Assembly (NCBI GenBank): GCA_031290175.1
Contig: JAITOC010000009.1
Coordinates: forward strand, 10,285-74,284
Direction of reading: 5' to 3'
Source: Coriobacteriales bacterium
GTDB taxonomy: Bacteria; Actinomycetota; Coriobacteriia; Coriobacteriales; UBA8131
DNA length: 64,000 bases
Part shown: piece after piece, positions 9,423-42,799 of the stretch
Layout of the letters: each line of letters begins with the position of its first letter
How positions within the stretch are numbered: the stretch's first letter is position 1
Translations under genes and position numbers: made by a program
Notes under the pieces: generated by a model
Database searches by the model: none
What the model saw: only the letters and a program-made list of their open reading frames with translations
Told to the model about the DNA's origin: nothing

Positions 9423-11045
9423 GTGGTACCTGTGTTACACGATGCAATCCACAACTTTCCGGCACTCTTGCGTTTTGCACTCAAGCGAGACCGCGTCTGG
9501 CTTGGCGCCTGGATACTGGGACTCTTGCTCTTGGGGGTATTCTTCGCGCCGATGCTCCCCGGTGTCGCTGGCAATGCTGCTGAACTCGCAGCCATGCGGC
9601 AGACCATGGAATCCCCGATGCTGGTCTCGATGACGGGCATGCTGTATGGCGATACCTACACCTACGGTGTCATGCTGGGACAGACGATGCTGACCTGGAT
9701 GGGACTCATCGCCGGCATTATGAACGTCTTTCTGGTCATCCGCCACACGCGCAAAGATGAAGAGAGCGAGCGCCTCGACCTCATCCTGGCATTGCCGGTG
9801 GGCAAGACGAGCACTCTCTTTGCAGTCATGCTTGAAGTCATCATCGCCAACCTGGTAATTGCCCTGCTCACAGGCGTTGGGCTCGCGGCTCTGCAGGTCG
9901 AGAGCATCTATCTTGGCGGCTCGATGCTCTACGGCACACTCATCGGATTGTGTGGCATCCTGTCCGCCGCCCTTGCCGCCATCTTCGCACAGCTTGCAAG
10001 CACCTCACGTGCGGCAACGGGTCTCTCCATCCTCGTGTTAGGGGTATTCTTCCTCATGCGTGCCGTGGGGGATGTGGGCAACGAGGCGCTTGCTTGCATC
10101 TCACCGCTTGGCCTCATCGAGCGCTCGGAACTTTTCGTGGGCAACTACCTCTGGCCAAGTGTCATCCTCATCATCGAGTGTGTCGCGCTGTTCCCGATAG
10201 CGTTCTGGCTCAACGGTCGGCGTGACCTGGGTCAGGGGCTTATCCCCACACGCAAGGGGCGGAGCCGTGCCTCTTTTCTGCTCAACGGCACCTGGAATCT
10301 GGCATTCAGGCTGGTGCGCACCATCGCCTTCGTCTGGATAATCGTCGCCTTTGCCCTGAGTGCAGCCTACGGCTCCGTCTTTGGTAGCATAGAGGAGTTC
10401 CTCAACTCGAGTGAACTCTTCCAAGCGGTTATCGGCGTCTCCGGTGCGGGAACCATGGCAGACTATCTCAACCCCATGGTCGCAACCTTGCAGCTCATCA
10501 TGGGGATTATCGCCACCGTCTCAGTTGTAACCCTAGTGCTGCACCTCAAGACAGAGGAGGGTCGCGGACGCCTTGAGCAGGTCTACGCAAACTCCGTCTC
10601 GCGTACCTCCACCCTGCTGGCGTATATCGTCATGGCAAGCGTGCTCGCCTTTATCGTGCAACTTACCAACGCCTTGGGCATGTGGATAGCATCATGCTTT
10701 GTTTTGACCGACCCTCTCCCCTTTATAGAGTTCCTCAAGACGAGCATGAACCTCCTGCCGGCGCTCTTGCTCTTCGTTGGGCTTGCAGCTTTCTTCATTG
10801 GTGTCATACCACGCCTTGCCGGCATCAGCTGGGCTTTCCTAGGTTACAGCTTTCTTGTAGTTTATCTGGGCGGCATGCTCAATATGCCCAAATGGGCAGA
10901 GGCTATCGCTCCTTTCAGCGCGGTTGCACGCTACCCCGTTGAGCAGATAGAGGCGGTTCCCCTCGCCGTCCTCCTCGGGCTGTATCTGCTGCTGTGCGGC
11001 ATTGGGCTTATCACCTACCGACGCCGCGATTTGAAAACGGGGTGA
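9423..11045 (+). CDS. ABC-2 type exporter permease, about 12 TM (COG3559/TnrB3-like putative antibiotic exporter)
   Basis: 540 aa and highly hydrophobic throughout. It directly follows the ATPase and has a GTG start. The family name comes from size, topology and TetR/ATPase context only. Confidence 0.7.
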   Translation: MVPVLHDAIHNFPALLRFALKRDRVWLGAWILGLLLLGVFFAPMLPGVAGNAAELAAMRQTMESPMLVSMTGMLYGDTYTYGVMLGQTMLTWMGLIAGIMNVFLVIRHTRKDEESERLDLILALPVGKTSTLFAVMLEVIIANLVIALLTGVGLAALQVESIYLGGSMLYGTLIGLCGILSAALAAIFAQLASTSRAATGLSILVLGVFFLMRAVGDVGNEALACISPLGLIERSELFVGNYLWPSVILIIECVALFPIAFWLNGRRDLGQGLIPTRKGRSRASFLLNGTWNLAFRLVRTIAFVWIIVAFALSAAYGSVFGSIEEFLNSSELFQAVIGVSGAGTMADYLNPMVATLQLIMGIIATVSVVTLVLHLKTEEGRGRLEQVYANSVSRTSTLLAYIVMASVLAFIVQLTNALGMWIASCFVLTDPLPFIEFLKTSMNLLPALLLFVGLAAFFIGVIPRLAGISWAFLGYSFLVVYLGGMLNMPKWAEAIAPFSAVARYPVEQIEAVPLAVLLGLYLLLCGIGLITYRRRDLKTG

Positions 11046-11054
11046 GGAGGGCTA

Positions 11055-11738
11055 TCAAGCGAGGCCGTATTTTTGTTTTACTCGTGTGATCTTGCGGCTC
11101 CAAGGGGCATAAAGCAACAGGAGGAAGAGCAGAGTCGAGATGTCATGGGCGACGGTCATCGGGATGCCGAGAAGATAGACCGAGACCACCATCTCTACCG
11201 AGGTTGGATGGACGAAGGCAAGCAGGTGGTAGGTATCGAAGAATATCCCATAGACCACTGAAGCGAGCACCCCATAGGTCACCACCTGCCAGCGCAGCTT
11301 GAGCAGCCCCGCCGAGACAAGTGCCCCCGAGCCGTAGCCCATCATGCCCCAAAGATACATCTGCCAGGGCGTCCAATGCCCTTGACCGAGGAACATATTG
11401 GACACGAGCGCTGCGATGGCGCCTACCATGAAGCCCTGCTGGCGTCCAAAGCTGACCCCAGCGATGATGACTATCGCACTCACTGGCATGAAGTTGGGCA
11501 GGGCGACGAACACCAGACGCGAGACCACCGCTAGAGCGGCGAGCACGACGATGGGCATAATGTCACGGGCGCGCACTGCCGCTGCCTCAAAACGAGCGAA
11601 CGCGAGAAAGATCGCAAGCAGGGCGACGAGCGCACTCAGAAGCGCGGTCTGTTTCACCCCGAACACGATGCAGACCACAAGCACGATGGGCACAAGTGCC
11701 AGCGCAATCGGTTCGAGAATGCGGAGGAAGGTCTTCAT
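11055..11738 (-). CDS. ECF transporter substrate-capture (S) component, putative corrinoid-specific
   Basis: 227 aa with about 6 TM. It is the last gene of the riboswitch-controlled ECF operon and has an ATGA overlap with the ATPase gene. Specificity is inferred from the riboswitch only. Confidence 0.6.
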   Translation of the reverse strand: MKTFLRILEPIALALVPIVLVVCIVFGVKQTALLSALVALLAIFLAFARFEAAAVRARDIMPIVVLAALAVVSRLVFVALPNFMPVSAIVIIAGVSFGRQQGFMVGAIAALVSNMFLGQGHWTPWQMYLWGMMGYGSGALVSAGLLKLRWQVVTYGVLASVVYGIFFDTYHLLAFVHPTSVEMVVSVYLLGIPMTVAHDISTLLFLLLLYAPWSRKITRVKQKYGLA

Positions 11739-13525
11739 CCAAGTGCCCGCCCCAGCACATCATCGAGGGTGACGCAACCGGGGAGGATGCCGCGTGTGAT
11801 GCGGTTTATATCCGTTGCATAAAAGAGGTTGCCATCGAAGAACTCCTTGGGCTTTCCGGCACCCGCAAGCTGTCCGTTGAACAGGAGGACGCACTCATCT
11901 GCGTATTCTGCGGTGAAGGCAAGGTCATGACTCGCAATGATTATCGACCTGCCCAGCGCAACGAGGTTTCGGAGGAGTATCCCAAGCTCTTGTTTTGCTG
12001 CGGCGTCTATGCCCTTGGTCGGCTCATCAAGGAGGAGGATGTCGGGATTGGTGAGTAGGAGCTTGGCGAGTGCGACCTTCTGCTGCTCACCGGCGGAGAT
12101 GTCATAGGGATGTCGATTCACAAGGTGCGTGAGCCTGAACTCCTCCAAAATCCCCTGAACTGCCTCCCTGTCAGAGCCAAAACCTGTGGCTCCCTCCTCA
12201 AGATCCTCGCGCACCGTATCGCGTATGAGTATCGCCTTGACATCCTGCGGGAGAGCCGCTCGACGTAGTTTTCCTTCGACGCGCACGCGGCCACGCTGCG
12301 GCTTCCGTACACCTGCAAGTGCGAAGAGAAGCGTGCTCTTGCCGCTCCCGTTTGACCCGAGAATGGCGTGGATGCGTCCCCGACGCGCAGCGACGTCCAC
12401 TCCTTTGAGCACGAAGCCGTGCTCCTTGCCATAGGAGAACCAGAGGTCGTGCGTTGTGAGCACGGGGGCAGAAGCCCTCTCTGTCTCTGCGCCTGAAAGC
12501 AACTCCTGAAACCCTGGGGCTGCGCCTGAGTTCAGCTTTTGGATTGCCGCATCCTTACGCGCACACACCACCGCCTGCAGCAGATTGCGGGCATCGCGAA
12601 CAGTCGTTGGCGTGTCCTGCGCTCCGGTGGGTAGTTCCAACCCCTCTTCAGGCATGGGTTGGCATTTGTCTTCTCGTGCAGCGAGTGTCAGTGCGAGTTG
12701 CGTGGCAGCCGGAAGCGCTGGCAGATACAGGGGCTTTTCAGTTGTACAGAAGACAATGAAATCCTGCACTCCACCGTCAAAAACCCTGCGCCCCTCATCG
12801 AGGAAGACAACAGTTTCACACAAGGGAAGCAGGTCGCTCAGATGATGCTCGGCGATGAGGATTGTTATGCCCAGCTCTTGATTCACTCGGTACAGTGCGC
12901 TCAGGAACTCCTTGGAGGCCAATGGATCGAGCTGGGAAGTCGGCTCGTCAAGGAGGAGCAGGACGGGGTGCATGGTCATAATGGCGGCAAGGTTCAGCAG
13001 TTGCTTCTGGCCGCCGGAGAGCTCTGAGGTCTTCTTGTCAAACCAACCACTTATACCGAAGAAGGCGGCTATCTCCGCCACGCGACGTTGGATGACCGCG
13101 CTGGGAAGCGCAAGGTTCTCAAGCCCAAAGGCGAGTTCTTCTCCTACGGTGTCGGTGACGATCTGTGCTTCAGCGTCCTGCATGACAAAGCCGATGCGCC
13201 CGGGATCCTCACTATGAGAGTCCTGCTGTGTGATGGTTAGTTCAGACCCGAGCACCTCCACGATCCCCTGCCGCAGACCCTGAGGTGCAAGCTCGGCCTT
13301 CAGGCACTGGAGAAGCGTGCTCTTGCCACATCCCGTCATGCCTGCAAGCAGCGTGAACGAGCCTACCGGCACACGCAGGTCGTCGATGTCGAGAGTCGGT
13401 TTACTCGCAGCACCCACACAAGGCTCACCGCCCGAGCAGGCAACGTAATCTGCACGAGCCAAAGCAGCAGAGGCAGCCTCCGGCGGATACGCAAACGAGA
13501 AACCCGTCAGCTTGACAGCATCCAT
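11735..13525 (-). CDS. ECF transporter fused double ATPase (EcfA-EcfA')
   Basis: 596 aa with two ABC cassettes. Walker A motifs GMTGCGKSTLL and GSNGSGKSTLL; signatures LSGGQKQ and ISAGEQQ. Confidence 0.9.
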   Translation of the reverse strand: MDAVKLTGFSFAYPPEAASAALARADYVACSGGEPCVGAASKPTLDIDDLRVPVGSFTLLAGMTGCGKSTLLQCLKAELAPQGLRQGIVEVLGSELTITQQDSHSEDPGRIGFVMQDAEAQIVTDTVGEELAFGLENLALPSAVIQRRVAEIAAFFGISGWFDKKTSELSGGQKQLLNLAAIMTMHPVLLLLDEPTSQLDPLASKEFLSALYRVNQELGITILIAEHHLSDLLPLCETVVFLDEGRRVFDGGVQDFIVFCTTEKPLYLPALPAATQLALTLAAREDKCQPMPEEGLELPTGAQDTPTTVRDARNLLQAVVCARKDAAIQKLNSGAAPGFQELLSGAETERASAPVLTTHDLWFSYGKEHGFVLKGVDVAARRGRIHAILGSNGSGKSTLLFALAGVRKPQRGRVRVEGKLRRAALPQDVKAILIRDTVREDLEEGATGFGSDREAVQGILEEFRLTHLVNRHPYDISAGEQQKVALAKLLLTNPDILLLDEPTKGIDAAAKQELGILLRNLVALGRSIIIASHDLAFTAEYADECVLLFNGQLAGAGKPKEFFDGNLFYATDINRITRGILPGCVTLDDVLGRALG

Positions 13526-14352
13526 CTCAACTTGTCACCTCCCTGAATCAACAGCGGTAACACCATGATTAGGGCATAGGGCAGCTGTTGCCACACAGAG
13601 CCCGACGCACTGATATAGGGATAGAACAGGTAGCCCCGCAACCCAAGCACGAGCGAGACCGCTGCAGCCATCACAAGCAGCAGCAACGCGGCGAACAACA
13701 GGCTTTCGTAGCGTCGCCAGCGCAGAGGGCGATAGCTGCTGCGTTTGCGCATCCCATAACCACGCGCCTTCATCGACGCAGCCGTTACAAGCCCCGACTC
13801 CATGCTCCAACCCATCAGCGCCGAGGTCATCGTTGATAGCCAACGGAGACGCACTATCCCCTTCTCCCCTGTTGCAAGCGCAGTATGGGCATCCTGCAAA
13901 GCCGTCGCACGATTGCTAAGGCGTGGGATAAAAGCAAAGACCATGGAGACAATCAGGCTTGTGCCGGGCAGGATCCGGCCAAAGACGATACGTATGCCCG
14001 CCGCACCAACCACCTCCTGATAACAACTGAACCAGAGGATGACGGAGGCAAGCAGCACGCCCGAAGTCAGACCAAAGACAAGAGCCTCAAGAGTAATGGG
14101 GTTGCCACCCGGCTTAGCAAGAACGGTGAGACCAGCGTGGTTGAATCCGGCATTGAATGCCGTCATGACGAGGACAAAGAGCAGGAGCCAGGCGCAGAGC
14201 CGCAGACTCGCCCGCAGCCCCTTGAAGCAGATGTAGGCCGTCAGAGCGCCCGCGAAGGAGAGTGCTGCGTAGACCGGATGCAGCGCGCACATCGAGAGCG
14301 CTATGACAGCCGCAAAGTACAAGAAGAGTACCAAAGGGTGAAAATCCCTCAT
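13507..14352 (-). CDS. ECF transporter transmembrane (T) component, CbiQ/EcfT family
   Basis: 281 aa polytopic protein with the EcfT-type coupling motif region SMKARGYG. It overlaps the ATPase gene by 19 nt. Confidence 0.85.
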   Translation of the reverse strand: MRDFHPLVLFLYFAAVIALSMCALHPVYAALSFAGALTAYICFKGLRASLRLCAWLLLFVLVMTAFNAGFNHAGLTVLAKPGGNPITLEALVFGLTSGVLLASVILWFSCYQEVVGAAGIRIVFGRILPGTSLIVSMVFAFIPRLSNRATALQDAHTALATGEKGIVRLRWLSTMTSALMGWSMESGLVTAASMKARGYGMRKRSSYRPLRWRRYESLLFAALLLLVMAAAVSLVLGLRGYLFYPYISASGSVWQQLPYALIMVLPLLIQGGDKLRWMLSS

Positions 14353-14362
14353 GGCAACGGAA

Positions 14363-14926
14363 CTACTCCCAGGAAGTGACGTAAACCCACTTGATTATAT
14401 CGCCATCATTGGCGAGGGTAACATCGGCACCCTCCGCGGCGAACTCATCATTGATGAAGAAGGTCCAACCCGCCTCTGGGGTCACAGCACCCTCACTCAG
14501 ACCCTCGATTGCACTCACATAGGTACCGAATGAAGCCGTTGTCGTTCCGACCGTGATGCCTGCATAGCGCGTTGCATCGAGGATATTTGTACCATCCTCG
14601 ACCTCGATCGTCGAGGTGAAAGTGTTCCCGCCCTTAAGCTCAGCGATAGCGAGAGCCGTGGGGTCTTCCGCCTCAACGGCTGCCGAGATGTCCACCGTCA
14701 CGGTAATGGTCACCGCATTGGGGACGGGAATGTTCGCATCAGTCTGTGACCCCGACGGCGTCTCGGTCGGAGTGTCGTTGTTTGCGCCCCCGGGCGTCTC
14801 TGCCGGCGTTGTGCAGCCTGCAAGCGCAAGCCCGCTTAGCGCAAGCAACAGCGCCAAGGCAAAAGCCGCCAGCCTTCTTTGGATGAACCTTTGTTTCGCT
14901 TCCCCCTGCTTTGCTTCTCCCTGCAT
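14363..14926 (-). CDS. DUF4430-domain lipoprotein (transcobalamin-like fold family), putative extracytoplasmic corrinoid binder
   Basis: Lipobox LALAGC. The C-terminal pattern GWTFFINDEFAAEGADVTLANDGDIIKWVY matches my memory of the DUF4430 signature. It is the first gene after the cobalamin riboswitch. Confidence 0.7.
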   Translation of the reverse strand: MQGEAKQGEAKQRFIQRRLAAFALALLLALSGLALAGCTTPAETPGGANNDTPTETPSGSQTDANIPVPNAVTITVTVDISAAVEAEDPTALAIAELKGGNTFTSTIEVEDGTNILDATRYAGITVGTTTASFGTYVSAIEGLSEGAVTPEAGWTFFINDEFAAEGADVTLANDGDIIKWVYVTSWE

Positions 14927-14964
14927 GTTTCCTTCCCTTCCGTCGGGAGGGCAGGCATAAGAAT

Positions 14965-14992
14965 GCCCGCGACCTCGTTAGATGTCGCGGGC
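14965..14992 (-). terminator. riboswitch expression-platform hairpin (terminator or sequestrator)
   Basis: GCCCGCGAC / GTCGCGGGC form a 9-bp stem, followed on the mRNA by AUUCUU. It lies between the aptamer and the RBS GGGAAGGAAAC of the lipoprotein gene. Confidence 0.45.
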
Positions 14993-15034
14993 CGTATTTC
15001 CGCGTTGCGCGGGCAATAGCTCGTTGCCACACGT

Positions 15035-15145
15035 ATTTGAACTCCTGCAGGCATTCTGACTCACGTCTTTAGTAGACGCTCACAGCGGCGGCACCGTTCA
15101 GGATTCACACCTGATTTCCTTCGCACAGAGTTTAGGGCTTCTCCA
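15035..15145 (-). promoter_or_regulatory. cobalamin (B12) riboswitch aptamer
   Basis: The minus-strand RNA reads GCGAAGGAAAUCAGGUGUGAAUCCUGAACGGUGCCGCCGCUGUGAGCG...GUGAGUCAGAAUGCCUGCAGG. This matches the conserved core (AGGGAA..GGUG.AA.UCC..ACGG.CCCGCCACUGU) and a B12-box-like AGUCAGAAUGCCUGC. A TATACT -10 element sits at 15145-15150 just upstream. Confidence 0.8.
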
Positions 15146-15170
15146 GTATAACCTACCTTACGGCACTGGG

Positions 15171-15380
15171 CTATAGCTGTGCCGTAAAACCTGCTTCTTC
15201 CACGGCCTTTTTCATGGCGTCGGCGGTCACGCTGGCATCGTGCTTGACGACCGCTTCTGCCTTGTCAAGGCTGACCTTAGCCTTCTTCACGCCCGGAAGT
15301 TGCTCAAGCGCCTCAGTTACCGCCTTCACGCAGTGCTGGCAACTCATGCCTGTTACACCGATGCTTGTCTTCTCGCTCAT
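15171..15380 (-). CDS. copZ: heavy-metal-associated (HMA) domain copper chaperone
   Basis: 69 aa with the metal-binding motif GMSCQHCVKAV. Confidence 0.85.
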   Translation of the reverse strand: MSEKTSIGVTGMSCQHCVKAVTEALEQLPGVKKAKVSLDKAEAVVKHDASVTADAMKKAVEEAGFTAQL

Positions 15381-15422
15381 GGTGGATCCTTTCTCTGTTT
15401 GATACCGGTGGGCTGCCCGACG

Positions 15423-16277
15423 TCAGGCGTCAAGACCCTGAACGACGATGCCAAGAAGGCCTGGCCCTGTGTGTACGATGAGGGCAGGAGAGATAACGCC
15501 CCTGAAAACTTGCTTCGCGCGGGGGAAATACTCTTTGACGCGTGCGAGCACCTTCTCTGCATCGTCTCTCGCACCCGTGTGCATGATGCCGACATTGTAG
15601 GAGCTGAAGTGCTCCGCCATATCCCGTGCGTGTTTGACGAGTTTCTTGATCGAGGGAATACGTCCACGCGCCGTGCTCACGACGGAATAGGTGCCCTTGT
15701 CATTGCAGGAGATGATGGGTTTAATGTTGAGCACGCTGCCAAGAAGGTATACGACCTCACCGATGCGCCCGCCCGCCTTGAGGTACTCAAGGGTCTCAAG
15801 GCAGAAGAATACCTTGGAGTCCCGTACCCGTGCCAGTATGCGCTCCTCAAGGTGTTCAAAGGAGGTGCCACCTGCGATAAGGCGACCAGCAGCTATGGCG
15901 CTCACACCTGCCCCGAGACCGATGCTCTTCGTGTCGATGAAGATGCACTCCAGCTCGGGCACCTGCTGCGCTGCCAGGCGCATGGCCTCATGCGTCCCTG
16001 ACAGCCCAGATGAGATCGTAACCACAACAGCCTGGGTAAAGCCGTCAGCAAGCACTGTCTTGAATGTCTCGGTGAGTTCTCCCAATGTGGGAAGCGAAGT
16101 CTTCGGTATCTCGATGGCGAGGCGTCTCTCCACCTCAGCGGAGTCGATATCGATCCCATCCCGGTAGGTGTGATCCGCATAGTTAACAAGCAACGGTATC
16201 TTGTAGAGCTTAACATCGGGCACGTAAGCAGAAACGACATCGGTTCCTGAATCGACTACGAGTGCGATCGGGTTCAT
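15423..16277 (-). CDS. DegV family fatty-acid-binding protein
   Basis: 284 aa with the DegV-type N-terminus IALVVDSGTDV and family-typical length. Confidence 0.8.
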   Translation of the reverse strand: MNPIALVVDSGTDVVSAYVPDVKLYKIPLLVNYADHTYRDGIDIDSAEVERRLAIEIPKTSLPTLGELTETFKTVLADGFTQAVVVTISSGLSGTHEAMRLAAQQVPELECIFIDTKSIGLGAGVSAIAAGRLIAGGTSFEHLEERILARVRDSKVFFCLETLEYLKAGGRIGEVVYLLGSVLNIKPIISCNDKGTYSVVSTARGRIPSIKKLVKHARDMAEHFSSYNVGIMHTGARDDAEKVLARVKEYFPRAKQVFRGVISPALIVHTGPGLLGIVVQGLDA

Positions 16278-31988: not shown

Positions 31989-32789
31989 TCAGTTCTGTCC
32001 AAAAAGGCCCTCACGGAATGCCTCAAGATAGTTCATGCAGTATTCATCGTTGCCGAGAAGCGCATCGACGGCGTGCATGGTCGCCTGCATGTCGGCAGAC
32101 ATCGGATCCATGATGGCACTGTCCATCCCGGCGGCCATCGCAAGCGCGAGGAACTGGGTGTTGAGCGCCTTGCGATAGGGCATACCGAAGGATATGTTGC
32201 TCAGACCGGAGGTGATGTGCACGTCCGGGAATGCTGCCTTTATCAAACGAACTGCCTGGTTGAATCCCACCAGTGAGTCACCCTTGGTAGCAAGGGTCGT
32301 AACCAGAGGATCGATGAGCAGGTTATCGTGGGGAATCCCATTCTGATCCGCGAGTGCGACGATCTTTTTTGCGATCTCGAACTTGACCTGTGGATCCTCC
32401 GGTATTCCGTTGTCATCGCAGGTAAGAGCGACAACCTTCCAGTTGGTGCCAGCAATAGCGGGAAGGACGATCTCGCATTTGCCTGATTCGAGCGAGATGG
32501 AATTGATGAGACCCTCTTTGTTGGCCCGTGGAATCATGTCGACTATGACCTGGGGGTCTGAGCTGTCGATACACAGAGGGGTGTCGACGGTACCCTGAAC
32601 AAGATCGATGAGCCACTCCATGGTTTCGTGCTCGATGGCGGGCTCCACGCCGGCGCAGACGTCGATGTACGAAGCTCTGCCTGCAGCCTGTTTGGTCGCG
32701 AGCTCCTTGATGTACTTCTCGTCGTGCGCCTTGATGGCCTCAAGCGTCTTGGGGATGAACCCGTTTATCTTCTCGCCGATGATTATCAT
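31989..32789 (-). CDS. pterin-binding methyltetrahydrofolate:corrinoid methyltransferase paralog (candidate MT2)
   Basis: Begins MIIIGEKINGF and contains SGLSNISFGMPYR and LAMAAGMDSAI. ATG 32789 is preceded by GAAGGAGGA; the track start is 32834. It is the first gene of the acs cluster. Confidence 0.85.
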   Translation of the reverse strand: MIIIGEKINGFIPKTLEAIKAHDEKYIKELATKQAAGRASYIDVCAGVEPAIEHETMEWLIDLVQGTVDTPLCIDSSDPQVIVDMIPRANKEGLINSISLESGKCEIVLPAIAGTNWKVVALTCDDNGIPEDPQVKFEIAKKIVALADQNGIPHDNLLIDPLVTTLATKGDSLVGFNQAVRLIKAAFPDVHITSGLSNISFGMPYRKALNTQFLALAMAAGMDSAIMDPMSADMQATMHAVDALLGNDEYCMNYLEAFREGLFGQN

Positions 32790-33042
32790 GTGATCCTCCT
32801 TCATAGTCCCGCTCGGTCTTCTGGTCAGCGTCAAAGGGGGATACCCTATGGCTGCACTATCAGACTAGGGGTTGAAAATATTCACAGCAATCCGTTTGAT
32901 TGATGGAGAGATGATGCGTGTTTTCCTACACAATGCCGGAAAGGTTCAGGCGGGTCGGGAGCATAGAGGGAATCTATAATGGAGCTTGTTCGGATGGACG
33001 CAGGAATCATGCAACCGGGGGAGCCTTGAAAGGAGAACCATC

Positions 33043-33363
33043 ATGCACACTGAATCAGGACACACTTCACATCCACACGAGCATTCGCACGCACATATCC
33101 ATGAGCATTCACATGAGCACCCCTGTGATAACCTGCACACCCATCAGCATCCCGTGGGACAGAATGAGACCAGCGCGCTGCTGGGATATCTCATCGAGCA
33201 CAACACGCAGCACACCGACGAGCTGCTCACCCTTGCCGGCGATGCACAACAGAACGGATTGGTCGAGGTAGCAAAACGCATCGAAGCCGGTGCGACGCTC
33301 TACCGATCAGGCACCGAGGAGCTGGTCAAAGCACACGCACTCCTAAGAAAGGCGACAGTATAA
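33043..33363 (+). CDS. histidine-rich putative Ni/Co-binding protein (CooJ-like role inferred)
   Basis: 106 aa from ATG 33043, preceded by AAAGGAGAA. The N-terminal 40 residues are about 40 percent His (HPHEHSHAHIHEHSHEH), followed by a helical C-terminal domain. TAATG overlap with cooT. Confidence 0.6.
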   Translation: MHTESGHTSHPHEHSHAHIHEHSHEHPCDNLHTHQHPVGQNETSALLGYLIEHNTQHTDELLTLAGDAQQNGLVEVAKRIEAGATLYRSGTEELVKAHALLRKATV

Positions 33364-33557
33364 TGTGCCTCTCAACAGTACGCTACGCAACTGACAGCGA
33401 GTCGGACGCCCCTATCGCCAGCAACGTCACCTCTGTCGTTGTCAACGGCAGCAGGATAATGCTTACCGACCTTATGGGAAGCGAAATTGAGGTTGTTGGG
33501 GCAATCGTGCGGGTTGATCTCATAAAGAACCATATCATCATCGCGACCGCTGCTTGA
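33363..33557 (+). CDS. cooT: CooT family nickel-binding CODH maturation protein
   Basis: 64 aa. Starts MC (conserved Cys2) and shows the CooT-like pattern ...IMLTDLMGSEIEVVGAIVRVDLIKNHIII. Confidence 0.78.
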   Translation: MCLSTVRYATDSESDAPIASNVTSVVVNGSRIMLTDLMGSEIEVVGAIVRVDLIKNHIIIATAA

Positions 33558-33569
33558 ACACACTTCGGA

Positions 33570-35072
33570 TCACTCGTTCTTGAGCAGCTCGAATGACAGA
33601 AGCACGTACCACTGAGAATCGAAGTTCGTCATGTCGATGCCACATATCTTCTGGATACGCTCAAGCCGATAAGAAAGCGTGGTGCGATGGATGAAGAGCT
33701 CACGTGCCGTATGTGCCAGATTGAGATGGTTTTTCAGGTAGACATACAGCGTATTGTACAGCTCGGCATGATGCTCCCTGTCGTATGCTCTCAGGGCAAG
33801 CAGTTCCGGGGAACAGACCAAGGTCGCAGGTAGTGCCGTAGTGCAACTTTTAAGCAGGAGTGGCTTCACGATCCTATCGAAATGGAACAGTTCTCTATAG
33901 GGAAACGCCTGGGGGCCGAGCTCGAGCGCCAGGTCTGCTTGAGCACCATACTGACGCAGGTCGTCTAACCCGGAGAAGATGTTGCTCATCCCTGCTTTCA
34001 TGAAATTATCCCGCAGATACAGCGTCAATATCCGCTCAAACTCATCCCTGCTCCCCCGATACAGATCCAGATTGATGATAGCAACGATGCTTTCTCCGAG
34101 CTCGAACACGCCAGTCTCCGCAAGCATGCTCGCGATACGTTCGCGGATGAACCTGAGGGTTCGATCTCGATGCACCCTGATGTCGATGTGGAACCTCAGG
34201 GACACATAATGGTGCTGCGGCAACCACCCATAACCTTCGAGCTTCCTGACGATAGATTCCGTCTTCGTGAGGGAGCCCTCCATGATGAGTTTCAGGGTGT
34301 CCGCCAGACCGGGTTCCGCCGGGGTATACTCCGGCACGAAACCGATGGCCAGATGGGTGATCTCCGCAAGGTACTCCAACAAGACGGCGTCAGAGGATTT
34401 CAGAGCCTGCTTGAACTCAATCAGGATGAGGCGATACTTGAGCATGTCCTGTTGCACGATATTGACGCAGAACCCACGCTTCTCCTGTATGAGCAAGGGC
34501 AGGACATGGATACTCCCTGCCAGAGCTGAACTTGTGTCCATGGCAGAGCGCATCAGATAGGGCAACCGCATGCTGTTGAGAAGGGGCACCAGGTCAGGAT
34601 CTACCCCGATGTCATTCGAGAAGGCGACGGCCTTGAAGTTGACATCGTGAAGAAGCAGGGGGTTGCCGAACAGTTCGGTGCTCACATCGATCATCGCCTG
34701 CACATCCGATCCACTGCTGAGCATGGAATGTATACGTGCCTCCCAGAGATCATAGCGCGCAAAGATGTCCTGGAGGCCGTTGTGAACCTTGAACAGCGTA
34801 GCGCCGCTGTTGATGACAACGGCAGCATCGAAGTGCTCCAGGAGCTCCTCCGGAGCCGTACCGACGATGAGGATGAGCGATGAGACGGTGTTGGGAGGCA
34901 GAGGAATGTCGGAGGCGTCCTCGACAAGGTAGACCTGATCATCCATCCACGTTGTCCCCGGCTCGACGAAGAGGATGCGATGGATGACTGGCTTGCTGTC
35001 AGGCGTGCCGATAACGGTGCAATCAAAGGCCTCTTTCAGCCCCTCGGATATCATTTCAGCACTGATCTTCAT
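33570..35072 (-). CDS. PucR family transcriptional regulator
   Basis: 500 aa with the C-terminal PucR HTH ARELFIHRTTLSYRLERIQKICGIDM. ATGA overlap with the upstream DUF3786 gene. Confidence 0.85.
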   Translation of the reverse strand: MKISAEMISEGLKEAFDCTVIGTPDSKPVIHRILFVEPGTTWMDDQVYLVEDASDIPLPPNTVSSLILIVGTAPEELLEHFDAAVVINSGATLFKVHNGLQDIFARYDLWEARIHSMLSSGSDVQAMIDVSTELFGNPLLLHDVNFKAVAFSNDIGVDPDLVPLLNSMRLPYLMRSAMDTSSALAGSIHVLPLLIQEKRGFCVNIVQQDMLKYRLILIEFKQALKSSDAVLLEYLAEITHLAIGFVPEYTPAEPGLADTLKLIMEGSLTKTESIVRKLEGYGWLPQHHYVSLRFHIDIRVHRDRTLRFIRERIASMLAETGVFELGESIVAIINLDLYRGSRDEFERILTLYLRDNFMKAGMSNIFSGLDDLRQYGAQADLALELGPQAFPYRELFHFDRIVKPLLLKSCTTALPATLVCSPELLALRAYDREHHAELYNTLYVYLKNHLNLAHTARELFIHRTTLSYRLERIQKICGIDMTNFDSQWYVLLSFELLKNE

Positions 35073-35725
35073 CGTCTGCTGCCATTCCGTATGGCTATGA
35101 GATGGTTGATACTGATATCACCTATGACCGCAAGATCCTCCGCTGAGAACGCGGAGCGGAAGTTCTCGTCAAAGAGCACCTGGACTGACGGGGGGAACTC
35201 ATCATCTGCTGCCCATATCAGGATGCTCATGGGAAAACCGGAAAGGAACTCGAAGCAATACCCCACATCAGCATGAGCGACGCGTCTGGCATTGAGCTGT
35301 GATGCCCGCTCCATGACCTGCCCCAGGGATTCCGGATCACGACCGAACTCCCGCAGCAGTCTCCCAATGACGCGTCCCTGGAAATTGCTGGCATAGGTCT
35401 GTGCCCGGGGGAACTCCCGGTACGCCAACTCCCTGCCGGTCGGTTCCGTAAAGCACCCTTCGATGAGGAATCGCAGGATAAGGATACGTTCATAGGCTCG
35501 AGCTTCGGTGAGCTCTTCTTCTCTGACCATCGAGAAGTGTGGCCAGGATACCCGGTACCCCTGCCCCATGAGCGTCAGGCGGAACACCGCCGCGCCCTGC
35601 TCATATTCCAGCCCTGTGCGCAGGGCGATAACAGAGGGATCCATGCCCTCATAGAGAGCAGTGTAATGCTCAAGGGCTCGTGCGGTCAGCTGGTCATCCT
35701 GTGGGGACGGAGCCGTTTTTGCCAT
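35069..35725 (-). CDS. DUF3786 domain-containing protein
   Basis: 218 aa from ATG 35725, 11 nt after the RACo stop codon. The track ORF extends to 35974, but that part overlaps the RACo 3' end. It is a paralog of 45068-45745. The family name is from memory. Confidence 0.6.
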   Translation of the reverse strand: MAKTAPSPQDDQLTARALEHYTALYEGMDPSVIALRTGLEYEQGAAVFRLTLMGQGYRVSWPHFSMVREEELTEARAYERILILRFLIEGCFTEPTGRELAYREFPRAQTYASNFQGRVIGRLLREFGRDPESLGQVMERASQLNARRVAHADVGYCFEFLSGFPMSILIWAADDEFPPSVQVLFDENFRSAFSAEDLAVIGDISINHLIAIRNGSRR

Positions 35726-35738
35726 TCTCGCTACACTT

Positions 35739-37673
35739 TCATCTGGAAAAGAGCGATGCATCGGTATGGGGCAGGAAGCAGGCCGCGACGAATTCATCCA
35801 TATAGGACGGCATGGAGCTGAGCTCGACGTAGGTGATGTTATTCGCCAGAGCACACAGCTCGTCGTATGCCTCAGATGCCGAAAGAATCGCGTAGGAACC
35901 CGCCAGGGACGTATTCCCGATATAGGAATAACCCTCCCTTGGAATATTGGGCAGCATTCCAACTCCCACTGCATGCTCGATATCGATGGCGCTCCCTATG
36001 CCGCCCGCGATGTAGATGTGCTCGATGACGCTCATATCCATGTCCGCAATGGCAAGAATCGTGCGGATGGCCGAGAAGACCGAGCCTTTTGCGCGTATGA
36101 AGTTTTCGATATCCGCGTCATTCAGCGCCACCTCCTTGGCACCATCTGCCTCCTCAGCGGTTGCGATGATATAGGAGGTGCTTCCCCATTCGTCTTTTCG
36201 TATCCGATCCCCCTCCCGCTGAAACCGCCCTCGGGCATCTATGATCCCCGTCCGATAGAGTTCACCGATGGCGTCGATCAGACCCGAGCCGCAGACGCCC
36301 CTGGGCTTCTGATCGGGCTCCCCTATCACCTTGTAGCAGGGGTTCATCGTTGCGTCGTCAATCTCAAGCGCTTCGATAGCTCCATCGGTCGCCCGCATGC
36401 CGCAACTGATATCGCCTCCCTCAAAAGCAGGACCGGCGCTGCACGCACAGGCCATCAGGAAGTCAGAATTGCCGAAGACTATCTCACCGTTGGTTCCGAG
36501 GTCAATCAACATGGAAAAGGAGTCGCTGCGGCCGATCATGGAGGCAAGGACGCCCGCCGTTATGTCGCCCCCCACATAACTACCGACGGCGGGAGCAAGA
36601 AGCACGCGGGCATCAGGGTTTACCTCAGCCATCAACTCGGAGCCCCGGAGCCCCTCCAGGGAGAAGAATGCGGGAACGTAGGGCTCCAGCCGCAAATGGT
36701 TGCCGTAGACCCCCGTGAAGAGATGGATCATCGTGGTATTGCCCGCTACGGCGACACGCACGATGGAGGAAGCGCGGCGATTGATGCTTTCGACCAGGGA
36801 TCTCACCAATGGCTGCAGGCACTCTGTGACGATCGCCTCGCGCAAGCGCTCCAGACCGCCTGCGCGAGTGGACTCGATAAGGCGATTGATGACATCGGCA
36901 CCGAAGCGTATCTGCCCGTTGCCCGCCGACCCCGAGGCCAGTATCTGTCCGGTACTGAGGTCGGTCAGCAAGGCCGATACCGTCGTCGTACCGATATCGA
37001 TCGCCAGCCCCAGAGGAGCCTCGTTCTTGGATGAGACATCAAGGATGGTCAGGTTCCCGTTCGATTCCGTCTGGATAGTTGCCACAACGGTAAAGTCTGT
37101 CTCGCGGAGCGCGTGTGGCAAGACGCGAAGCGCACCGATTCCGACGCTTATCCTCTCCTCGGATACCCCAGTGCTTCCCGCCAGGGCGTGTAGCAGGCGC
37201 TCCTGATCCGCCTGGGCATCATCAAGCGTGGGAACCGAAAGGCTGACCTCACGCAACTCATACCCCTCAACAAGGGTGTGTCCAAGGCGAGCCAGTATCC
37301 CAGTAATGGCCGTGCGTGCGGCCTCCTCACGTGGGTTATCACTGCTGGAGACTCGTATTCCGCTCTGATATGCGGAGGCCTCAACGGGAACCTCAACCTC
37401 GATATCCCCGCGCAGGGTGCTGACGCATGCCAAGACCCATCCTTGGGCTGATTCCGCATCGTTTATGTGGCGGTTCTTGGGACTTTCCACCTCGCCGCGA
37501 ACCACGCGCACGCGACACTTCCCACAGGTCATATTCCCTGCACAGGGAGCGTCGATGGGCACGTTCGCATGCTTTGCGCTATCCAGCAGACTTGTGCCAA
37601 CGGCTGTTGATGCAACAATCTTCCGACCATCAGCAAGAGCGAAATTGACCCTGACAGCATCCATGTGAACCAA
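35739..37673 (-). CDS. reductive activator of corrinoid proteins (RACo; [2Fe-2S] plus ASKHA/DUF4445 ATPase, COG3894)
   Basis: 644 aa. Has the N-terminal plant-type ferredoxin motif CAGNMTCGKCRV and an ASKHA region GLAIDIGTTTV...DLGTNGEI. Alternative ATG at 37664. Confidence 0.85.
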   Translation of the reverse strand: MVHMDAVRVNFALADGRKIVASTAVGTSLLDSAKHANVPIDAPCAGNMTCGKCRVRVVRGEVESPKNRHINDAESAQGWVLACVSTLRGDIEVEVPVEASAYQSGIRVSSSDNPREEAARTAITGILARLGHTLVEGYELREVSLSVPTLDDAQADQERLLHALAGSTGVSEERISVGIGALRVLPHALRETDFTVVATIQTESNGNLTILDVSSKNEAPLGLAIDIGTTTVSALLTDLSTGQILASGSAGNGQIRFGADVINRLIESTRAGGLERLREAIVTECLQPLVRSLVESINRRASSIVRVAVAGNTTMIHLFTGVYGNHLRLEPYVPAFFSLEGLRGSELMAEVNPDARVLLAPAVGSYVGGDITAGVLASMIGRSDSFSMLIDLGTNGEIVFGNSDFLMACACSAGPAFEGGDISCGMRATDGAIEALEIDDATMNPCYKVIGEPDQKPRGVCGSGLIDAIGELYRTGIIDARGRFQREGDRIRKDEWGSTSYIIATAEEADGAKEVALNDADIENFIRAKGSVFSAIRTILAIADMDMSVIEHIYIAGGIGSAIDIEHAVGVGMLPNIPREGYSYIGNTSLAGSYAILSASEAYDELCALANNITYVELSSMPSYMDEFVAACFLPHTDASLFSR

Positions 37674-37760
37674 CGTTCTACTCTATTTTCCCTGTGGGTA
37701 TAGTTTATGTTCTGTAGAGCGTTTATTTCTTGTGATAAATCACCCAGCTTTTGTAATTTC

Positions 37761-38993
37761 CTATCGAATCGAATTACGATAGCGATTCGGGGAGGTTTTG
37801 GCATAGCGCATAAACACTTTGGTGAAGTAGCTTTGATCCGAGTATCCGGTGAGGGTGCTCACGTCTGCCAGGCTAATCGATGAGTCGTGGAGGAAGTCCT
37901 TGCTCCTCTCGATACGGAAGCGATTGAGGTAGTCACGAAACGAATACCCAGTCTCCTCTTTGAAGAGCCGACTGAGATACTGCGGTGCGATATAGATGTG
38001 CGCCGCCGCGTCTTCGATGGTCATTCTCTTCGAATAATTCACCTGAATGTAATTAATGGCCTCACGAACAAGGTCGGAGCGTTTCGAATAGGGATTCTTG
38101 ATGACATATCCCGAATAGAGACTGAGGAACCCATTGAGCCACAGGATTATGTCTTGAAGGTTATCGAGGGCATCTACCTGTGGCAAAAGCTCTTTCTTCT
38201 GATCTTTGATGTATTCTTCCTGAGCACCATCGCGGATCATAGCGGCAGTCAGGTAGGTCATAATCTCTACGATCTGTTTGCGGATTGCGTCAAGATTCTT
38301 TCCGGGATGGAACAACATCATATCGACAATATCTCTCAACAGTATCTGAGCCGCGTTCGTATTGATGGAGGCAAGCAGCTGAGTCAGCTTCTGCACCTCA
38401 TCCAACATCCTTCGCCCATTGTCCTGTTCGGTCTCATTGAAGAACGAGTTAACATAATCGGAAAGCTGTTTGTTGGGCGAGAAGCTCTCATCGATACTCT
38501 CGAAATATTCGGGGCGCGTACCGTCACTGACATACTCGGCATTGATATGCAGTTGCTCAGAAAGCGCAAGGAGACTGGTGGCGTCGCGCACAGGAATGGT
38601 AGACAATTCCTCGAGCAGGCCGTGATAATCGCCTGTCGGTATCTTTGGCAGGAGTTCATACTCAAAATAATCCTCGATCGAACTCATCAGGATAGGCCCG
38701 CCAAAAACAGACAGGTACTTCTTGGCTTCTCGATATACCGGGGAGACGAAAAAGAAAAAACCCCTCGGGTCGGCGAAGATATAGCGTCCTCTGAACCTCA
38801 GGGTCTCATAACTTGCCTTGATAATGGATGCCTGACAGCGCTCTCTCACGTCAAGGAGTTCGGAAACCGAATCAAGAACTCCGGCAATCTGTGTATAGTG
38901 CTCTGTTTGGTACACAAGCTTGCCATTATCATCAAGTATGAACACGCCAATCTTGGACACGAAAGAAAAATCATTCATCGTCTCAAATTGCAT
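37761..38993 (-). CDS. AraC family transcriptional regulator with an uncharacterised N-terminal sensor domain
   Basis: C-terminal AraC HTH (LADVSTLTGYSDQSYFTKVFMRYAKTSPNRYR). The gene is visibly AT-richer than its neighbours. I chose ATG 38993; the track start GTG is at 39005. Confidence 0.85.
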   Translation of the reverse strand: MQFETMNDFSFVSKIGVFILDDNGKLVYQTEHYTQIAGVLDSVSELLDVRERCQASIIKASYETLRFRGRYIFADPRGFFFFVSPVYREAKKYLSVFGGPILMSSIEDYFEYELLPKIPTGDYHGLLEELSTIPVRDATSLLALSEQLHINAEYVSDGTRPEYFESIDESFSPNKQLSDYVNSFFNETEQDNGRRMLDEVQKLTQLLASINTNAAQILLRDIVDMMLFHPGKNLDAIRKQIVEIMTYLTAAMIRDGAQEEYIKDQKKELLPQVDALDNLQDIILWLNGFLSLYSGYVIKNPYSKRSDLVREAINYIQVNYSKRMTIEDAAAHIYIAPQYLSRLFKEETGYSFRDYLNRFRIERSKDFLHDSSISLADVSTLTGYSDQSYFTKVFMRYAKTSPNRYRNSIR

Positions 38994-39097
38994 GGACAAC
39001 CCCACTATAACGATATAAAGAAAACATAGTTACACCCTCAACTCTGTGAATAAGGTTATTGTACCATGGCTTCGAAAGTGCGCTACAGCTCGTTGTG

Positions 39098-39658
39098 TTA
39101 TCCGTGGATCAATGAAAGAACCTCATGCCGCGAACGAATGGAGGTCTCGAAGGCGCCCCGCACTGCCGAGGTCGTCGTCGTGGTTCCCGGTTTCTTGACT
39201 CCCCGCATCGACATACAGAGATGCTCCGCCTCGATGACGACGATGACAGCATCCGCCTCAAGCTGCTCCATCAGGGTGTCCGCTATCTGGGATACCATGC
39301 GCTCCTGCACCTGGAGCCTTCGGGCATAGGCCTCCAAAAGCCGAGCCAGCTTGGATAGCCCACAGACATGACCCCGTCTGCCGGGGATGTAGCCGATATG
39401 CGCGACGCCAAAGAAGGGCACCAAGTGGTGTTCACACAGCGAATAAAAAGGCATATCTTTGACGAGGACGATCTCGTGATGATGCTCATCGAATACCTTC
39501 TGCAGTATCGATGCGGGATCCTGTTCGTTACCCGCGAGCACCTCCTTGTACATCCGCGCCACCCGTGCCGGTGTCTCACGCAGCCCTTCGCGCAAGACAT
39601 CCTCCCCTACTCCTTCAAGGATGAGACGGACGCCTTGCTCTATCTTGGTCAGATCCAT
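39098..39658 (-). CDS. folE: GTP cyclohydrolase I (type IA, Zn-dependent)
   Basis: Closely resembles Bacillus FolE as I recall it. Contains [18 protein letters not shown] and [15 protein letters not shown] chose ATG 39658; TTG 39670 is also possible. Confidence 0.93.
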
Positions 39659-39670
39659 AGGAAACCTCAA

Positions 39671-40297
39671 CTATCTCGTTATCGATGGGACAGGAGAAGC
39701 CAGCAGCATCTTCCATACCGCTGGTTCGATGGTGCACGTGGCAGCCATCTCGATGATCGCAACCCCGGGCTGTAACTCCCCGAGCGTTCGGACGATCTGT
39801 TGTTTCGTGCCTTCGTCGACGAGGTCGATCTTATTCAACAGGATTGTGGTTGCCCCTTCAAGCTGTCGTCGTATCATCCTATCATTAAAAGCAATCAGCT
39901 TGATGAAACGACTGGCATCAACGACCACAAGAGAACTGACGGAAGCATCAAGACCTCTGCATGAGCGTATTTCGGCTTCGATCTCGGACGGTATGGCAAG
40001 ACCGGTCGCTTCGATGATGAGCCATTCGGGGTCGTACAACTCCCGAATCTCTTGTATCGTCAAACTGAGATCGTCTGCCAGGTTGCAGCAGATGCAACCT
40101 GCAATCAGCTCCCGCACCTCCAAACCCCCTGCCCGCAAGGTGGCTCCATCAATGCTCACAGAACCGATCTCGTTCTCGATGATGACGACCGCGGTGCCCG
40201 TATCACGACGCGATACATCCTTGAGATACATGGCAAACGGAAGCAGCAGGCTTGTCTTCCCCGAGCCGAGGAATCCGCTCAAGAGCACTATCCTCAT
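39671..40297 (-). CDS. short COG0523 (CobW/HypB/UreG-superfamily) GTPase metallochaperone lacking the CobW C-terminal domain
   Basis: About 208 aa from ATG 40297, preceded by GGAAGGAGGGA. Has Walker A GFLGSGKTS and the CxCC motif GCICCNL. It ends directly before folE. Confidence 0.8.
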   Translation of the reverse strand: MRIVLLSGFLGSGKTSLLLPFAMYLKDVSRRDTGTAVVIIENEIGSVSIDGATLRAGGLEVRELIAGCICCNLADDLSLTIQEIRELYDPEWLIIEATGLAIPSEIEAEIRSCRGLDASVSSLVVVDASRFIKLIAFNDRMIRRQLEGATTILLNKIDLVDEGTKQQIVRTLGELQPGVAIIEMAATCTIEPAVWKMLLASPVPSITR

Positions 40298-40559
40298 CAC
40301 AGTCCCTCCTTCCCTAGTGCGCGGCGTCCCGCAGAAACAAGACCTATCCGTCATCTGTTAGCATGATACTTCCCTCGAAGCCCTGAACTTTGGTGAAGAC
40401 CTACACAGTTCTTGTACTTTTCCTACCTATGCCGTCAAATCGATTCCTGAACCCATGATCCATTGTCTATACTTAGCAGCAAATCCCTTTGATGCTAGAC
40501 AGGGTGCATATACTCCGTACCGCATATGACATCTTCGAAGACAACAACAGGAGGTAGCG

Positions 40560-42074: not shown

Positions 42075-42133
42075 GGTGAGCTCAGACTCGTCACTCCAGT
42101 ACGATACACTTAAGCCCCGAAGAAAGGAAAGCC

Positions 42134-42697
42134 GTGCTAGCAGAGGAAACCAAGGTTGAGACCGCACTGGAAACGCTGAAAGTGTTTCTGTGGCATGAGA
42201 TGACCTCGTTCGACCCGCGCATCCTCAGCTTCACCCAGGAGATACGCTCCATATGTGAGAGCAATGGCTGCGGGCGCTACAACAAGGTCTGGAACTGCCC
42301 ACCCGCTGTAGGCTCACTTAAGGAGCTGGAAAAGAGCCTTCGTGTCTACCGGGAAGCCATTCTCTTCACTGAGTTGTCATGGCTCGAGAGTCCCTTTGAC
42401 TGGGATGCCATGGTCTTGGGTGGCAAGAGTTTTGACAAGCGGCTTGCACTTGCCAATAACCATCTGAAGCAGGCATTCGACGGAACCGACACCGCGTTTA
42501 AGCTCTTTGGCTCAGGGATGTGCCAATCATGTGACTCATGCACCTATCCCGATGCGCCCTGCAGGTATCCCGACCTGCTGTTCACACCAATTGAAGCCTG
42601 TGGGATCAATGTGGTTGAACTCTCCCAAAAAGTGGGCATCGCATACAACAATGGCGAGAACACCGTAACTTGGTTTGGCATGATTCTCATCGCATAG
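42134..42697 (+). CDS. DUF2284 predicted metal-binding protein
   Basis: 187 aa with the Cys patterns CESNGCGRYNKVWNCPP and CQSCDSCTYPDAPCRYP, which I recall as typical of DUF2284. GTG start. Confidence 0.72.
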   Translation: MLAEETKVETALETLKVFLWHEMTSFDPRILSFTQEIRSICESNGCGRYNKVWNCPPAVGSLKELEKSLRVYREAILFTELSWLESPFDWDAMVLGGKSFDKRLALANNHLKQAFDGTDTAFKLFGSGMCQSCDSCTYPDAPCRYPDLLFTPIEACGINVVELSQKVGIAYNNGENTVTWFGMILIA

Positions 42698-42736
42698 CGC
42701 GATAGGATTCTCTGAAGTTTTAGAGACCTTACAGAT

Positions 42737-42771
42737 AAAGGCTCCGCGAAGTGATACTTCACGGAGCCTTT
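42737..42771. terminator. bidirectional intrinsic terminator between convergent DUF2284 and mtaB
   Basis: AAAGGCTCCGCGAAGT-GAT-ACTTCACGGAGCCTTT forms a 16-bp stem with one mismatch, with an A-run before and a T-run after. Confidence 0.7.
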
Positions 42772-42799
42772 ACGCCACATCCCCCGATGTGAGATAGGA

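Follow-up and report, generated by a model that had tools for sequence, protein, structure and literature searches.

Transporters of the energy-coupling factor (ECF) type are, in the textbook view, importers that need no extracytoplasmic binding protein. Both cobalamin and cobinamide are transported by the ECF-CbrT system of Lactobacillus delbrueckii (PDB 6FNP), for which hemin is not a competitor (Santos et al. 2018; PMC5997447). Secreted SLBB proteins resembling transcobalamin, encoded with CbiO-like and CbiQ-like genes in bacteria without B12 synthesis, were described by Burroughs et al. (2007), who proposed that these proteins scavenge B12 and that the animal B12 carriers originated in bacteria (PMC1796856). 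SEED uses a matching product name, 'additional lipoprotein component of predicted/putative cobalamin ECF transporter' (PMC9963975). The lsa1836-1840 genes of L. sakei have been deleted and complemented and were read as a heme importer, with binding addressed by docking only (bioRxiv 10.1101/864751). Here we analyse a 64-kb stretch of a Coriobacteriales metagenome-assembled genome (contig JAITOC010000009.1; the window hereafter), in which a cobalamin riboswitch and a four-gene operon, all on the minus strand, combine a DUF4430 lipoprotein with ECF transporter components.

The explanation that we favour, with a probability of roughly three in four, is that this Coriobacteriales bacterium carries a cobalamin-repressed operon for a dedicated group I ECF corrinoid importer of the CbrT family. 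The identities of the parts are shown below; ligand binding, capture by the lipoprotein with hand-over to this importer, and the precise structures involved in switching are what we infer.

Transporter genes and the DUF4430 lipoprotein

A first-pass annotation, made from the nucleotide sequence and its open reading frames, had named the four genes as a DUF4430 lipoprotein, an EcfT, a fused EcfA-A' and an S component, and Pfam, NCBIfam and profile matches upheld each of these identities (Table 1). The fused ATPase holds two PF00005 (ABC_tran) domains and matches TIGR04521 (E 2e-79) as well as TIGR04520 (E 8e-76), each in two stretches. The S component is homologous to the CbrT chain 6FNP_A over its full length, at E 7e-6 as a single sequence and E 7e-23 as a profile. 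CbrT is its only clear relative of solved structure, the next S component following at E 0.064, and BtuM was not among the PDB matches of the profile. The EcfT sequence alone gave no Pfam or NCBIfam match; a profile of 16 EcfT orthologues matched the EcfT chains 5D3M_D/6FNP at E 2.4e-13, and the orthologues in three related loci (L003, L081 and L082; L-numbers name loci from the scan described below) carry PF02361 (CbiQ).

The S, T and A genes are contiguous on one strand, which is the arrangement of a dedicated (group I) module and is in agreement with the earlier proposal of a dedicated ECF importer. The description of the four genes as overlapping holds for two junctions, those between T and the fused ATPase (AA'; 19 nt) and between AA' and S (4 nt), and fails for the lipoprotein gene and T, which lie 10 nt apart. 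Judged from these matches, the system is an ECF transporter of the CbrT (cobalamin) type, group I, with cobalamin and cobinamide as predicted substrates. In the CbrTUV naming, we take the T component to be of the CbrV type and the fused ATPase to be of the CbrU type. The S component and its relatives share a hydrophobic N-terminal extension of about 55 residues with an invariant Glu51 and a nearly invariant Arg58; this extension, which the L. delbrueckii CbrT lacks, may form extra transmembrane helices and could contact the accessory protein.

That accessory protein consists of a signal peptide, a lipobox (LAGC, with Cys38), a Pro/Thr-rich linker of about 30 residues and a C-terminal DUF4430 domain (PF14478, E 6.9e-9, 36.5 bits against a cutoff of 23.8), which is the only DUF4430 domain in the entire window. 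The signal peptide and lipobox in the translation predict that it is secreted and located at the cell surface. Single-sequence searches of the PDB with the lipoprotein yielded noise only, and a single-sequence protein search returned just one near-identical protein owing to a word-index limit, so that the profile was built from the related loci instead.

An AlphaFold (AF2) model of the DUF4430 domain, based on an alignment of 61 sequences, reached a mean pLDDT (predicted local distance difference test) of 95.6. In this model a strand pair (59-64/67-73) follows a helix (48-54) and corresponds to the beta-hairpin insert that defines the transcobalamin clade within the SLBB superfamily (PMC1796856). 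Foldseek found the transcobalamin beta domain (5NO0) as the best PDB match, with E 7e-7 and a TM score of 0.78. All matches between E 7e-7 and 3e-5 were beta domains of transcobalamin, haptocorrin or intrinsic factor, together with the bacterial DUF4430 structure 3U7Z; generic beta-grasp proteins appeared after a gap, at E 4e-3 or worse. The confident model and these matches bear out the suggested kinship of DUF4430 to the fold of eukaryotic cobalamin carriers.

The most conserved residues of the DUF4430 family form an aromatic-Gly-x-Tyr and a Gly-Trp motif. Both align with the haptocorrin stretch RSWGPY...YW, in which we place Arg357 by our own numbering; at E ~0.1 this alignment is weak by itself and counts only jointly with the fold match. 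In the cobinamide complex of haptocorrin, Arg357 fills the place of the absent dimethylbenzimidazole (DMB) moiety (PMC5599065). Moreover, the isolated beta domain of human transcobalamin kept cobalamin through purification and was crystallized with cyanocobalamin and cobinamide (PMC5599065), so that a lone beta domain can bind a corrinoid; like the motif alignment, this is indirect support for the predicted corrinoid binding by the lipoprotein. No Prenyltrans or SQHop_cyclase match that could mark an alpha/alpha-toroid partner was found in the operon or among the scanned open reading frames of the window, and a literature search found no report of corrinoid binding by a bacterial DUF4430 protein.

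Cobalamin riboswitch and leader

A cmscan search of the whole 64-kb window gave one Rfam match at gathering level, a cobalamin riboswitch (RF00174; 35.7 bits against a gathering cutoff of 31.5, E 2.1e-5). It is situated in the leader of the operon, 102 nt upstream of the first gene and on the same strand. In a permissive local Rfam scan, RF01482 (adenosylcobalamin, AdoCbl) ranked first at 15005-15147 with 47.8 bits (cutoff 50, E 9e-8), in a match that also spans a hairpin 3' of the aptamer. The riboswitch core and B12-box strings pointed out in the first-pass annotation are present and received a covariance-model match above the cutoff; the B12 box is intact in the RF00174 alignment, where GAGUCAGAAUGCCUGC occupies its positions. 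A reduced peripheral extension had been suspected as well, and 10 nt indeed stand in for the 62 model positions of the P6 extension, with the P2 region also shortened. The aptamer is short and class II-like in architecture, without the P6 extension that characterizes the class I AdoCbl type.

Structural conservation was evident from the leaders of orthologous operons. RNAalifold, applied to four short-type relatives, found compensatory changes in 13 of the 30 consensus pairs, and helices P1, P4, P6 and P13 covary between the window RNA and its short-type relatives L008, L011 and L015. In the P13-like hairpin 3' of the aptamer, the loop CGAGCUA is kept in these three loci, and the stem covaries from A-U to G-C. 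On the strength of model match and covariation we assign the RNA to the Rfam cobalamin riboswitch clan CL00101 and predict that it binds cobalamin. It would be hard to explain these data by a chance match or a decayed element in front of an operon that is constitutive or regulated otherwise. The nearness of the score to the gathering cutoff, and consensus scans that gave no clear promoter or canonical terminator, speak for such an explanation, but the E-values in both the window-wide and the local search, the right strand and position, the intact core and B12 box and the covarying structural relatives in orthologous leaders make it the least credible of the readings considered here.

Downstream of the aptamer, the 9-bp GC hairpin that had been noted before was found at 14965-14992, with arms GCCCGCGAC/GUCGCGGGC of which 8 pairs are G-C, a 10-nt loop, and a U-rich tail (AUUCUUAU, 14957-14964) directly after it. 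This hairpin formed in all minimum-energy folds of the leader, and we propose it as the expression platform. A consensus promoter and terminator scan returned nothing useful in the leader and no canonical terminator; it overlooked the hairpin because the 10-nt loop exceeds the 8-nt loop limit of the scan. Control by transcription attenuation is supported by two related leaders, since that of L008 has a canonical intrinsic terminator downstream of its riboswitch and that of L011 ends in a U-run (GCUUUUUG) that is terminator-like by eye.

The motif GCCCGCG occurs twice in the leader (15005-15012 and 14986-14992, minus strand), and the first of these copies overlaps the 3' arm of P13. Each copy offers an alternative pairing partner for the 3' arm of the terminator-like hairpin, and the duplicated motif may be a switching element. 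The purine-rich ribosome-binding region of the lipoprotein gene can pair with an upstream CCCUCC, and the resulting small local hairpin is present in the leader folds.

TATACT, the sole -10-like element, is tentatively read as a possible -10 box for the leader transcript; a sigma-70 consensus scan of 10900-15500 did not find a full promoter. The gene for an HMA (CopZ-like metal chaperone) protein lies just upstream, and no terminator was detected separating it from the riboswitch, so that transcriptional read-through from this gene into the riboswitch leader is possible.

Related loci and the proposed role of the lipoprotein

A scan with the S-component profile, taking one genome per species, yielded 80 loci, and the order T, AA', S was retained in every one of them that had room. 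Outside the Collinsella aerofaciens/Enorma group, 25 loci had room upstream, and a hidden Markov model detected a DUF4430 gene upstream of T in 24 of these; it adjoins T in 23, lies 1.7 kb upstream in L020, and is missing in L015. Since Bacillus pseudomycoides and Massilioclostridium coli also have the gene upstream of T, the totals for the 27 loci outside that group (the DUF4430-type loci) are 26 with the gene and 25 with it adjacent. Each of the orthologous DUF4430 proteins is either a lipoprotein or signal-anchored and contains a long linker of low complexity. At least 11 of the 27 loci (L001, L003, L008, L010, L011, L015, L016, L023, L029, L038 and L082) have an upstream cobalamin riboswitch on the same strand, and three Rfam families are represented, RF00174, RF01482 and RF01689. 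Loci with this gene set recur in Actinomycetota and Bacillota, and a cobalamin riboswitch often accompanies them.

These riboswitches bear on the substrate. The transporter might import heme or another metallo-tetrapyrrole, with the DUF4430 protein scavenging heme, as the deletion and complementation of the L. sakei operon were taken to indicate; the S, AA', T and transcobalamin-beta-like parts are shared by that operon, which has an alpha-like protein besides. However, a cobalamin riboswitch precedes the window operon and at least 11 orthologous operons, the only clear solved relative of the S component is a CbrT whose cobalamin uptake hemin does not compete for, and the heme-binding argument for L. 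sakei relies on docking. We therefore consider heme import very unlikely for the window operon. Because the only genetically studied homologous operon has been read as a heme importer, the corrinoid specificity of the accessory protein remains a prediction.

In many relatives, the gene for an additional surface protein lies after the riboswitch and ahead of the DUF4430 gene (Table 1). Among these proteins are alpha/alpha-toroid proteins with DUF4430, which amount to a complete transcobalamin-like binder, a helical protein whose C-terminus is of the sortase type, a PQQ-like beta-propeller, and others in which 2-3 DUF4430 domains stand in tandem. This layer of accessory surface proteins looks modular and fast-evolving. 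A minimal layout with a single beta-domain lipoprotein is common to the window, L001, L016 and L029. A 500-aa open reading frame upstream of T in the Collinsella locus L049, considered as an alternative accessory protein, turned out to be a GC-rich artefact.

Several observations weigh against a cobalamin-repressed corrinoid importer served by its lipoprotein. As to the RNA, the RF00174 score is just 4 bits over its cutoff and the RF01482 score 2 bits short; the putative terminator has a weak U-tract, with 5 U among 8 nt; no defensible antiterminator was found in the leader; and a search for Watson-Crick pairing of L5 (UGUGAAU) with the P13 loop (CGAGCUA) gave none that could be defended. About 16 of the 27 DUF4430-type loci had no Rfam cobalamin match in the DNA scanned, from which it follows that riboswitch control is frequent and not universal. 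For L004, L005, L006 and L012 this absence is not a threshold effect, as a permissive Rfam scan gave no sub-threshold cobalamin match either. As to the proteins, the alpha-domain partner that completes the cobalamin pocket is absent here and present in many relatives, and a beta domain without it may be a weak binder. For the homologous operon of L. sakei, a role in heme uptake was reported (bioRxiv 10.1101/864751). Finally, about 50 Collinsella/Enorma loci hold T-AA'-S without a DUF4430 gene, and the transporter is evidently workable without the accessory protein. In the seven of these loci that were scanned with Rfam, no cobalamin riboswitch was found within 7 kb; their regulation and substrate may differ.

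The Collinsella-type loci also invite the idea that the lipoprotein binds a corrinoid without delivering it, and acts as a surface store, in competitive sequestration, as a selectivity filter (a role like that of Bacteroides BtuG/BtuH), or for particular cobamide forms only. Delivery is not mechanistically required, given these loci and the fact that the L. delbrueckii ECF-CbrT functions alone in proteoliposomes (PMC5997447). In addition, DUF4430 domains make up a very large family (16,043 clusters at 50% identity) and often lie within surface proteins of 1000-3000 aa. Against this stand the adjacency of DUF4430 and T in 25 of the 27 loci and their co-regulation behind one riboswitch, both of which indicate a transporter-coupled function, and we regard binding without delivery as unlikely, if well worth keeping in mind.

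Under the favoured reading, a cobalamin-repressed operon for corrinoid import, ample intracellular corrinoid would bind the aptamer, upon which the downstream terminator would form and transcription would halt ahead of the first gene. When corrinoid is scarce, read-through would lead to expression of all four closely packed genes. The lipoprotein would be exported, lipidated at Cys38 and held on its flexible linker of about 30 residues at the membrane's outer face, where its beta-grasp domain would bind the corrinoid at the nucleotide-loop (lower) face, like the isolated transcobalamin beta domain. Corrinoid concentrated at the surface in this way could then be handed to the membrane-embedded CbrT-like S component, whose toppling cycle would be driven by EcfT and by ATP hydrolysis in the fused ATPase.

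A bolder version of this model, which we hold tentatively and at somewhat under even odds, is that the stand-alone, lipid-anchored beta domain is a true capture receptor that docks on the CbrT-like S component, and that a widespread subclass of ECF transporters is assisted by binding proteins. The beta-only form would then represent the minimal ancestral state of the animal B12 carriers, and the short riboswitch could be adapted to methyl- or hydroxocobalamin, in keeping with the methyl-corrinoid metabolism of the neighbouring genes. If this were true, such a subclass would contradict the textbook view of ECF transport without a binding protein.

Table 1. Features of the operon and its leader, of the surrounding window and of related loci (positions refer to the window unless a locus is named)
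Feature	Position	Strand	Basis or remark
S component, CbrT-like, 227 aa	11055-11738	-	PF07155, PF20221
Fused EcfA-EcfA' ATPase, 596 aa	11735-13525	-	Pfam and NCBIfam
EcfT (T component), 281 aa	13507-14352	-	orthologue profile
Lipoprotein, 187 aa, DUF4430/SLBB domain (transcobalamin beta-domain fold)	14363-14926	-	PF14478
Purine-rich ribosome-binding region GGAAGGGAAGGA and ATG of lipoprotein gene (ATG at 14926)	14924-14942	-	sequence
Terminator-like hairpin and U-rich tail, proposed expression platform	14957-14992	-	leader folds
P13-like hairpin GGCAA-CGAGCUA-UUGCC, 3' of aptamer	15012-15028	-	within RF01482 match
Cobalamin riboswitch aptamer, short form without P6 peripheral extension	15028-15145	-	RF00174
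Possible -10 box TATACT for leader transcript (tentative)	15145-15150	-	sequence reading
HMA (CopZ-like metal chaperone) gene, 69 aa	15171-15380	-	3' end 24 nt upstream of aptamer
Second pterin-binding methyltransferase	31989-32834		
RACo reductive activator	35739-37673	-	
RACo reductive activator	40560-42074	+	
MtaB	42800-44176	-	
Corrinoid protein (MtaC-like)	44224-44856	-	
767-aa protein with beta-propeller domain	45873-48176	-	PF09826; adjoins MtaC-like gene
Alpha/alpha-toroid and DUF4430 protein (complete transcobalamin-like binder)	L008, 1286-3646; L081, 2939-4648		
Helical protein with sortase-type C-terminus	L082, 3205-4512		
PQQ-like beta-propeller	L003, 1990-3528		
Further upstream regions with extra surface proteins	L002, L004, L012, L017, L019		
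Collinsella/Enorma loci without DUF4430 gene	L026, L028, L031-L033, L035, L037, L039-L080		

Genomic neighbourhood and comparison with known systems

The surroundings of the operon are rich in corrinoid enzymes, in line with the corrinoid-hungry neighbourhood described in the first-pass annotation. Clusters for carbon monoxide dehydrogenase/acetyl-CoA synthase (CODH/ACS), with both subunits of the corrinoid iron-sulfur protein (CFeSP) and AcsE, and for an Ech-type hydrogenase lie at 17.7-32 kb. The window further encodes two proteins with B12-binding domains, MtaB and two RACo activators. A methanol/methyl-corrinoid module occupies window positions 31989-45745; besides MtaB, a corrinoid protein, both RACo activators and a second pterin-binding methyltransferase (Table 1), it holds a CobW-like GTPase, two DUF3786 proteins and regulators of the PocR-AraC and PucR types. 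This module and the CODH/ACS and Ech clusters jointly suggest methylotrophic acetogenesis in a Coriobacteriales genome. None of the 49 open reading frames scanned with Pfam, which comprise most of those of at least 180 aa in the window, was a cobalamin biosynthesis gene. The PF09826 protein, whose gene neighbours the MtaC-like one, might conceivably have a surface function related to corrinoids. The riboswitch-controlled operons of the relatives L003 and L019 likewise include beta-propeller proteins.

The many corrinoid proteins encoded nearby are the probable beneficiaries of the importer, and proximity, the sole link found between regulation of the operon and the Wood-Ljungdahl and methyltransferase genes, suggests that the operon could be their supply line. 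Corrinoid exchange shapes anaerobic communities, and this organism appears heavily invested in corrinoid enzymes, with a Wood-Ljungdahl CFeSP, a methanol methyltransferase system and two RACo activators. With a single beta domain and a single riboswitch within about 4 kb, the locus offers a clean and minimal case of ECF-CbrT combined with a transcobalamin-like lipoprotein. This compact layout makes it a convenient test construct for corrinoid binding by DUF4430, as opposed to the heme claim for L. sakei, and for the feeding of an ECF S component. Corrinoid binding by DUF4430, if true, would give an experimental footing to the 2007 proposal that the animal B12 carriers are of bacterial origin.

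Functionally, the proposed arrangement resembles BtuCD-BtuF, where an extracytoplasmic B12-binding protein feeds an ATP-driven importer, often under a B12 riboswitch. The two are not homologous; BtuF belongs to the class III periplasmic binding proteins, and BtuCD is no ECF transporter. The RNA resembles the short class II-type cobalamin riboswitches (RF01482, RF01689), of which the env8 hydroxocobalamin riboswitch is an example, in its four-way-junction core, its B12 box, the lack of a P6 extension and the separate 3' P13. It differs from them in staying under the RF01482 cutoff and passing the general RF00174 model only, and in the L5-L13 Watson-Crick complementarity, which was not seen.

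The lipoprotein domain shares its fold and beta-hairpin insert with the beta domains of transcobalamin, haptocorrin and intrinsic factor (5NO0, 4KKI, 2PMV; TM 0.64-0.78, E ~1e-6), and its two conserved motifs align with the corrinoid-contact stretch of haptocorrin. Sequence identity to these animal carriers is 15-19%, and unlike them the bacterial protein involves no receptor-mediated endocytosis. With L. sakei lsa1836-1840 the operon has in common the S, fused AA' and T components and an exported transcobalamin-beta-like protein. L. sakei adds the alpha-domain-like exported Lsa1840, and no riboswitch is mentioned there, whereas the window has no alpha-like gene and a cobalamin riboswitch.

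Among characterized transporters, the operon is like ECF-CbrT in its homologous S component and EcfT, its two ECF ATPase domains and the expected substrate class of cobalamin and cobinamide. The L. delbrueckii CbrT shares its ECF module with other S components (group II); EcfA and EcfA' are separate proteins there, and an accessory extracytoplasmic protein is lacking. In the window, by contrast, the module is dedicated, the ATPases are fused, the S component is extended at its N-terminus by about 55 aa, and the first gene of the operon encodes a DUF4430 lipoprotein.

The first-pass annotation, correct in substance in both its observation and its interpretation, had implied that an ECF system with a binding protein would be a novelty. 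This part of it does not stand, because the association was predicted in 2007 (PMC1796856) and has a standing SEED annotation (PMC9963975). The window matches those predictions in its gene set, in the predicted B12 scavenging and in the secreted transcobalamin-like beta-grasp domain. The earlier cases are predictions for Bacillota and archaea, whereas the window belongs to the Coriobacteriales (Actinomycetota), and unlike them it is minimal, with one beta domain, no alpha/alpha-toroid partner and no second SLBB protein. The locus is therefore a well-supported new example of a type of system predicted since 2007, and not a new kind.

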